Assembly (NCBI RefSeq): GCF_003334385.1
Contig: NZ_QOWN01000210.1
From: Escherichia coli
GTDB taxonomy: Bacteria; Pseudomonadota; Gammaproteobacteria; Enterobacterales; Enterobacteriaceae
Reading direction: 5' to 3' (one strand)
DNA: 303 nt
Positions 1 through 303 of this stretch are shown here, one piece after another; the stretch's first letter is position 1, and every line of letters starts with the position of its first letter. Position numbers and translations under genes: made by a program. The notes below the pieces were generated by a model. That model ran no database searches. It saw only the letters and a list, made by a program, of their open reading frames with translations, and was not told the origin of the DNA.

Positions 1-26
1 AAATTATTTTCAGCAATCCCTCAGCC

Positions 27-43
27 TACGAAAATTCTGTATT
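27..43. repeat. Direct repeat copy 1 (TACGAAAATTCTGTATT), 17/17 identical to copy at 203-219
   Basis: Position-by-position alignment with offset 176 gives 17 consecutive matches, with mismatches on both flanks (25-26 vs 201-202; 44-45 vs 220-221). A chance 17-mer recurrence in 303 bp is roughly 1e-6 to 1e-5. The core contains TAC-N9-GTA internal dyad symmetry. Function unknown. Confidence 0.85.
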
Positions 44-92
44 TGATGATTGTTTTATTTGCTCTCTTTTTATGCAGTCATTCTGTTGCTTA

Positions 93-121
93 TAAAAAAG
101 CACCACTATCTCATGTATAAT
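93..121 (+). promoter_or_regulatory. Candidate sigma70-type promoter: perfect -10 hexamer TATAAT (116-121) with an A-rich tract upstream and a weak or absent -35
   Basis: TATAAT at 116-121 with TG at 114-115, one position off the canonical TGnTATAAT extended -10 register. At a 17-bp spacer the -35 position (93-98, TAAAAA) matches TTGACA at only 3/6. TTGCTT at 86-91 is closer to consensus but gives a 24-bp spacer, too long. The A-tract at 94-99 could act as an UP-like element. The predicted start would be near 127-129. In AT-rich DNA a TATAAT can occur by chance. Confidence 0.3.
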
Positions 122-160
122 TTCTGGGTCTGTCGTCTCCCCGTTTTTCACTTACAGATG

Positions 161-182
161 CCGGGCAACATTCAGTTGCCGG
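161..182 (+). other. Imperfect inverted repeat / stem-loop CCGGGCAAC-ATTCA-GTTGCCGG (8-bp stem, one bulged G, 5-nt loop)
   Basis: Pairs 161-182, 162-181, 163-180, 164-179, (G165 bulged), 166-178, 167-177, 168-176, 169-175; loop 170-174. It is GC-rich relative to its surroundings. No U-tract follows on either strand, so it is not a canonical intrinsic terminator. It lies immediately after the ATG at 158-160. Confidence 0.3.
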
Positions 183-196
183 AATCAGCAGTTACC

Positions 197-223
197 ATGC
201 AATACGAAAATTCTGTATTGCAT
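197..223. promoter_or_regulatory. Perfect dyad-symmetric element ATGCAATAC-N9-GTATTGCAT; candidate operator for a dimeric DNA-binding protein, or an RNA stem-loop if transcribed
   Basis: Arm 197-205 ATGCAATAC is the exact reverse complement of arm 215-223 GTATTGCAT; the spacer is 9 bp (GAAAATTCT). The 27-bp total length and symmetry are typical of operator sites. As RNA it would give a 9-bp stem (3 GC pairs) with a 9-nt loop, with the AUG at 197-199 inside the 5' arm. Binding factor not identifiable from sequence. Confidence 0.4.
203..219. repeat. Direct repeat copy 2 (TACGAAAATTCTGTATT), embedded in the 197-223 dyad
   Basis: Identical 17-mer to 27-43. Here the flanks extend the internal symmetry into a perfect 9-bp inverted repeat. 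Confidence 0.85.
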
Positions 224-303
224 CCACGCCCTCATCTCAATATCTTTGTCGCCGGATAAAAATAACTATCAACCACAAGTATCATGCTCTCGGGGAGCAC
301 GCA

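Follow-up and report, generated by a model that had tools for sequence, protein, structure and literature searches.

The sequence analysed here, hereafter the window, is a 303-nt stretch of Escherichia coli DNA whose plus strand is rich in pyrimidines and poor in stop codons, a feature that an earlier note had read as either a compositional effect or a transcribed leader. At the locus (L001), the window occupies positions 8001-8303 and lies inside an unannotated gap of 795 bp (7651-8445) between two annotated genes of the minus strand. On one side is the gene for a YadA C-terminal-domain protein (eib, L001 6325-7650), whose product matches EibD structures (2xqh, 3e-21) and the YadA membrane anchor. 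On the other side is a gene encoding a DUF4376-domain protein resembling tail-fibre-assembly proteins (tfa-like, L001 8446-9027), beyond which come a tail-fibre gene, gpJ and other lambdoid tail genes, all on the minus strand. Both flanking genes being on the minus strand, the plus strand of the window runs antisense to the two of them. This order of lambdoid tail genes (J, tail-fibre and tfa-like) followed by the trimeric-autotransporter gene eib is that of a P-Eib-type eib locus. In this lambdoid prophage the window (1-303, assigned to neither strand) is part of the non-coding DNA between two genes: counted upstream from the eib start codon it covers nt 351-653, and counted downstream from the stop codon of the DUF4376 gene, nt 143-445.

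Four E. coli chromosomes, NZ_CP075632.1 among them, carry the window at 100% identity, with no annotation beneath it. Among 5426 complete E. coli genomes, the window was matched in 27 (about 0.5%) and the whole 795-bp gap in 32; the matches were chromosomal only, occurred at a median of 3 places per genome and were never annotated. Matches in 50,697 phage records were confined to eight P-Eib-like phages and one partial match, and the gap showed 94-99.5% identity to seven recently deposited inducible phages. The plasmid search returned no homologue of the sequence, and an exact search of 100,044 species-representative genomes with two patterns from the window gave no match.

The closest described counterpart is the gap between orf-191A and eibA of P-EibA (GenBank AF151091, from E. 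coli ECOR-9), which is 96.9% identical over 86% of the 795-bp gap, has the same flanking genes in the same orientation and is treated as non-coding in that record; it differs in lacking window positions 108-221 (114 bp). Its sole annotated feature is a stem-loop 104-141 nt upstream of eibA, outside the window. In our locus this stem-loop corresponds to an 11-bp inverted repeat, GAAATTCCGAA-N16-TTCGGAATTTC (L001 7754-7791, window -246 to -209, no strand), whose arms are identical in nearly all aligned copies, with a single change in one copy. The G+C content is 33-40% over L001 6800-8150, which covers the 5' half of eib and most of the gap, as against 50-70% in the tail-fibre genes; such a low-GC stretch is possibly that of an acquired moron, of which it would be typical, and a candidate target of H-NS. 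The region resembles the upstream regions of other lambdoid-phage morons in that the GC content drops to 34-40% after stf/tfa-like genes and in having mosaic alleles with sharp boundaries, but differs in that the window probably lies outside the minimal functional upstream region of eib.

The counts on which the earlier note rested are all correct. Six stop codons were found on the plus strand (TGA at 44 and 47; TAA at 93, 118, 257 and 263), where recomputation from mononucleotide composition gave an expectation of 15.5, close to the approximately 15 proposed; the minus strand carries 20, near its expectation of 21.7. The sole stop of frame 3 is that at 93 and the sole stop of frame 1 that at 118, neither of them followed by ATG or GTG, the latter triplet being absent from the whole window. 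All three plus-strand frames are open from 266 to the window end, and the ATG at 284 was confirmed. The base composition is T 100, A 81, C 74 and G 48, giving 57% pyrimidine and 40% G+C.

The depletion of plus-strand stops had a probability of 0.00045 in mononucleotide shuffles. The dinucleotide-preserving null expects fewer stops, because TA, GA and AG are under-represented in the window (0.71, 0.62 and 0.78 of expectation), and against it the six stops observed compare with 11.5 +/- 2.3 expected (P = 0.016). Six or fewer plus-strand stops were found in 22% of the 303-nt windows of the same 16-kb locus, most of these windows being antisense to GC-rich genes. Moreover, the stop counts of the two halves of the window are not independent, because the halves are diverged copies of one unit (see below), and the stops at 93 and 257 sit in a homologous ATAAAAA motif of the two copies. 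The depletion is thus genuine, but for a window chosen post hoc and for one strand of two it is a mild anomaly, only slightly beyond chance.

We then considered whether the plus strand could be a leader of a downstream gene. Annotation of the next 8 kb shows minus-strand genes only. From the ATG at 284, a frame of just 13 codons (MLSGSTHSPVFYL) runs to a stop at 323, the remaining two plus-strand frames close at 387 and 481, and there is a plus-strand terminator-like hairpin with a T6 tail at 292-316. Because the frames close downstream and no plus-strand gene follows, which is largely what the earlier note had itself named as telling against a leader, that suggestion is refuted.

Coding potential was assessed with a codon model trained on genes of the locus, a crude model given that only 13 genes were available. 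All six frames of the window scored as non-coding, with -0.40 to -0.72 per codon, compared with -0.50 +/- 0.28 for wrong-frame sequence and 0.13 +/- 0.21 for real genes. For comparison, we collected 60 homologous copies spanning the window (47 of them distinct) from E. coli genomes, phage records, IMG/VR and metagenomes. These fell into three groups: allele A, which is window-like; allele B, which is commoner, shares about 88% identity with the window and carries indels of -2, +2 and +1; and deletion forms. No reading frame was kept across the 60 copies, which differ by indels that shift the frame, by a stop within it, by the copy number of an 11-bp repeat and by deletions of 114 and 176 bp. 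The remark that the conceptual translations are not protein-like was therefore borne out by both the codon model and the comparison, and the stop-codon asymmetry marks neither a gene nor a leader.

Of the two origins first offered for the asymmetry, the compositional one stood, with C exceeding G and T exceeding A locus-wide, while the transcribed leader fell with the missing downstream gene. The GC skew of the window is -0.21 and its AT skew -0.12 on the plus strand, values typical of the surrounding stretch. In a 6-kb profile of the plus strand (L001 5000-11000), the GC skew was negative in almost every 300-nt step and the AT skew was negative from about L001 7850 rightwards; all genes of this profile, dinI excepted, are on the minus strand. 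The purine share of the minus strand of the window is 0.574, and that of the sense strands of the neighbouring genes is 0.545-0.624. The plus-strand pyrimidine excess would then be the mirror of a purine-rich sense strand that is typical of the whole locus. This agrees with Szybalski's rule (a purine-rich sense strand) in that the antisense skews of the window share their sign with those of the flanking minus-strand genes, and differs from it in that the skew continues here through a non-coding gap. TAA, TAG and TGA are few because the strand is rich in T and C and low in TA, GA and AG; together, the skew, these scarce dinucleotides and an old duplication that doubled a stop-poor sequence would give few stops without any selection for an open frame.

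From these comparisons we consider the window to be an ordinary non-coding prophage spacer at the right end of the late (tail) region, between the tfa-like gene and the eib adhesin moron gene, with a probability of about 0.8. Some observations weigh against so plain a reading. The stop depletion is nominally significant even against dinucleotide shuffles (P = 0.016), and the number of plus-strand stops stays at 5-8 in full-length copies and in copies with the 114-bp deletion, a persistence that follows from shared ancestry. Predicted folding of the window region is stronger than that of shuffled sequence for either strand (z = -4.4 and -4.0). Finally, allele B has three plus-strand terminator-like hairpins in about 320 bp, with five calls in the terminator scan against 0.6 +/- 0.6 in shuffles. 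This hairpin excess would suggest that some plus-strand transcription matters here, which a pure junk spacer does not need.

Alignment against shuffles further showed that the window consists of about 1.7 copies of a degenerate unit of 170-176 nt, with the 17-mer TACGAAAATTCTGTATT at its head and a plus-strand hairpin plus T-run at its end. The 17-mer occurs twice on the plus strand as an exact direct repeat, at 27-43 and 203-219, with a spacing of 176 nt; by our own estimate, the chance of such an exact repeat in 303 nt is about 3e-6. Repeat unit 1 covers 27-157 (L001 8027-8157), and unit 2, likewise on the plus strand, covers 203-303 and runs past the window end to about 327 (L001 8203-8327 in full). 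The direct repeat search reported the 17-mer, but not the whole units, as a repeat. Outside the 17-mer, the similarity of unit 1 to unit 2 against shuffles reached z = 7.4 in allele B and 3.3 in the allele of the window, so that two adjacent units are significantly similar along their length, as in a tandem duplication. The last base of 17-mer copy 1 is altered in allele B.

The two ends of the gap differ in their variation. The eib-proximal part of about 390 bp (L001 7651-8040) is almost invariant among paralogous prophages, despite eib gene lengths of 1077-1326 bp, while in the distal half (L001 8041-8445) two or three diverged alleles form a mosaic whose boundaries are sharp. Immediately to the left of the window, an 11-bp unit ATGACCATTGA (ATAACCATTGA in the allele of the window) is present in one, two or three tandem copies depending on the prophage (L001 7981-8001, window about -20 to 0), and because of this variation an open reading frame (ORF) of 78 aa entering from the left is broken.

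Two natural deletions were found among the 60 copies. Positions 108-221 (114 bp, no strand) are missing in 18 copies of the P-EibA type, including AF151091 of P-EibA itself (L003), L013, L025 and L011, and the segment has an ATC microhomology at its ends. Since the segment occurs in both diverged alleles, its loss is the derived state. A miniature inverted-repeat transposable element was considered as the source of this indel and rejected, as no terminal inverted repeat was seen on inspection and the segment is present in both alleles; a deletion at the ATC microhomology would be the simpler reading. In one copy (L007), 4 bp are duplicated at the left edge of the segment. The second deletion, in a single copy from metagenome contig OGGU01003443.1 (L035), removes exactly 44-219, the 176 bp between the 17-mers, and looks like a collapse of the duplication through recombination between the direct 17-mer repeats. 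As far as such natural variants can tell, the central 114-176 bp is thereby shown to be dispensable.

These deletions bear on the longest plus-strand ORF of the window, a mechanical call, which has 69 aa from a TTG start at 50-259 (48 aa from ATG 113) and is not regarded as a gene. That the plus strand encodes a small protein of 48 aa (ATG 113) or 69 aa (TTG 50), ending at TAA 257, is very improbable and, judging from the comparative data, already largely refuted. The layout is gene-like, with a terminator about 33 nt downstream of the ORF; the indels of allele B within the stretch from ATG 113 to TAA 257 total +3, leaving a 49-aa ORF in 28 of the 60 copies; and automatic callers annotated the frame in phage PhiR5_2. 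However, no Shine-Dalgarno sequence was found upstream of the ORF or of its ATG 113, and the -2, +2 and +1 indels of allele B are accompanied by heavy non-synonymous change, so that the two apparently intact forms differ at most of their first 24 residues, including a frameshifted stretch. The frame is interrupted by an internal stop in 4 of the 60 copies and largely deleted in 19, it scores second-lowest of the six frames by the codon model (-0.575), and it has no annotation from the Prokaryotic Genome Annotation Pipeline (PGAP) in any of the 32 matching genomes. A PHROG search at E <= 1 assigned no family to any plus-strand ORF, large protein databases not having been searched; one 41-aa ORF of the minus strand had a chance-level match (E = 0.043). 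A decayed gene remnant was also rejected, for tblastx of the gap against the compared loci matched homologous gaps only.

The terminator-like elements deserve closer description. The one closing unit 2, GGGGAG-cacgca-CTCCCC-AG-TTTTTT, was detected on the plus strand by the terminator scan at 292-316, its 5' arm and loop lying in the window (292-303). It folds at -11.6 kcal/mol (z = -2.6) and has the sequence form of an intrinsic terminator, a GC-rich stem followed immediately by a U-run. It is present in 60/60 copies, but divergence is low and no pair is changed on both sides: G294T breaks one pair in 13 of the 60, and A310G adds one in 17. The corresponding tail of unit 1 (124-149, plus strand, recognised by sequence and folding) is decayed in the allele of the window, where, in CTGGG...CTCCCCG followed by TTTTT, 2 nt of the 5' arm are gone and the folding energy is only -2.7 kcal/mol. 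In allele B this hairpin is intact (TGGGGAG-cgtgccgt-CTCCCCG-TTTTTT, L005 3472-3493).

A further plus-strand hairpin, AGGGGC-tggagc-GCCCCT-C-TTTTTTT, found in the same scan, abuts the DUF4376 stop codon (L001 8421-8445, window 421-445), and a diverged allele has the same stem with a changed loop. Another eib-like locus, whose gap is alignable at the eib-proximal end only (about 70% identity), has a different, strong plus-oriented hairpin with a T7 tail at that junction, in an equivalent position (L026 2950-2969). The elements at 292-316 and L001 8421-8445 resemble Rho-independent terminators in their 6-bp GC-rich stem, 6-nt loop and 6-7 T, and allele B adds a third such element; they differ from the usual case in pointing against both neighbouring genes, with no upstream plus-strand transcription unit evident. 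They would not stop the late (minus-strand) transcript, because there is no T-run in the minus direction. Within the spacer reading, the hairpins would stop transcription running antisense towards the tail genes, or would be relics of such stops, and the spacer would otherwise serve only as AT-rich upstream DNA of eib. Kinship with a dinI-like gene was rejected: the terminator of this plus-strand gene (L001 5558-5577) shares the GGGGAG/CTCCCC stem and T-run, with no wider similarity (E = 0.25).

Since a plus-oriented hairpin and T-run close each unit, small non-coding RNAs might be encoded on the plus strand by one gene or two, with a separate gene for each repeat unit and a Rho-independent terminator at the end of each (about 150 in allele B; 316). 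Such RNAs would be antisense to late-operon read-through into eib and have a regulatory or antisense role; we regard this reading as unlikely. Besides the closing hairpins, the presence of the 292-316 element in every copy, a predicted structure stronger than that of shuffles and a weak sigma-70-like match argue for such RNAs. This match (TAGTCA-17-AATAAT, 9/12) is at L001 7915-7943, 58-86 nt left of the window in the invariant region, but two 9/12 matches were found where 3.3 +/- 1.6 are expected, which is within chance. The promoter scan of the window gave no promoter-like site. The only good -10 hexamer, TATAAT on the plus strand at 116-121, lacks a -35 partner, and the scan made no promoter call on it. 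Allele B, the commonest, has TATGAC at this place, and deletion has removed the hexamer from the P-EibA-type copies and, in all, from 19/60. In addition, two natural deletions, independent of each other, take away the body of the putative RNA.

Conservation of structure was likewise not seen, as the internal hairpins are lost without compensating changes. One of these, GCCGGGCAAC-attca-GTTGCCGG (161-183, no strand), is specific to the allele of the window, where its folding energy is -13.4 kcal/mol (z = -3.5). Allele B (27/60) has changes that break it and none that compensate; it is half-changed in 2 copies and deleted in 19. No Rfam family was matched either: in Rfam 15, the window gave only chance-level snoRNA matches (E = 0.31 and 4.8), and none was obtained in the wider gap or in allele B. 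The better of the two, to the yeast snoRNA family snR55 at window 39-115, reached 20.1 bits where the gathering score is 50 (E = 0.31) and was dismissed as a chance fit to an AT-rich C/D-box model. The transfer RNA search found none. A weak promoter-like match was noted on the minus strand (TTGAAC-17-GATAAT, L001 7696-7668).

We next weighed a regulatory role of the repeats. The exact 17-mer is present twice, and its second copy is enclosed by a perfect palindrome, ATGCAATAC-N9-GTATTGCAT (197-223, no strand; repeat search and folding, z = -6.2), which is retained in both diverged alleles; moreover, the GC content here is 34-40%, against 50-70% in the tail genes. Expression of eib in K-12 lysogens reportedly requires ibrA and ibrB, as Sandt, Hopper and Hill are said to have found in 2002. 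The window might then be part of a long eib upstream regulatory region, with the 17-mers and the palindrome as putative binding sites for a regulatory protein such as the activator IbrAB or a silencer of AT-rich DNA, but on the comparative evidence this appears quite improbable. The palindrome is kept in 37 of the 60 copies; in 4 others a single mismatch between the arms is left uncompensated, and 19 have lost the element by deletion. P-EibA-type copies lack both the second 17-mer and the palindrome, the metagenome copy L035 lacks everything between the 17-mers, copy 1 of the 17-mer is altered in allele B, and the motif was not matched to any known operator. A LexA box, an IHF site and an invertase crossover site were sought in the 17-mer and palindrome, giving no convincing match to the consensus sequences, and no invertase gene is nearby. 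The accessible literature on Eib and EibG expression contains no eib promoter map. For complementation with eibG, 168 bp of upstream sequence sufficed, albeit from a multicopy plasmid (bioRxiv 10.64898/2025.12.25.695649); as the window starts 351 nt upstream, it was therefore not required there.

That the repeat units are functional plus-strand modules, either an antisense small-RNA pair ended by terminators or a tandem insulator made of one-way terminators, is a doubtful proposal. If the insulator existed, it would shield the late genes from antisense transcription coming from the moron or attachment-site side, and either kind of module would add an unannotated regulatory layer at the boundary of late operon and moron in P-Eib phages. 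Under the preferred reading of a non-coding spacer, the result chiefly removes a false lead, and matters little: a stop-poor strand without a start is what one expects from the antisense read of a skewed non-coding prophage spacer. Much of this is already known, the sequence having been public since the P-EibA deposit, and strand skew, intrinsic terminators, tandem duplications and mosaic phage spacers all being familiar. For work on the Eib adhesins, the natural variants with 114 or 176 bp deleted can be used as ready-made deletion controls, and the two to three plus-oriented terminator-like hairpins of the gap may be useful to know of. In one related prophage, a Hok/Gef family toxin gene is annotated just past the tail-fibre gene (L024 5610-5750).
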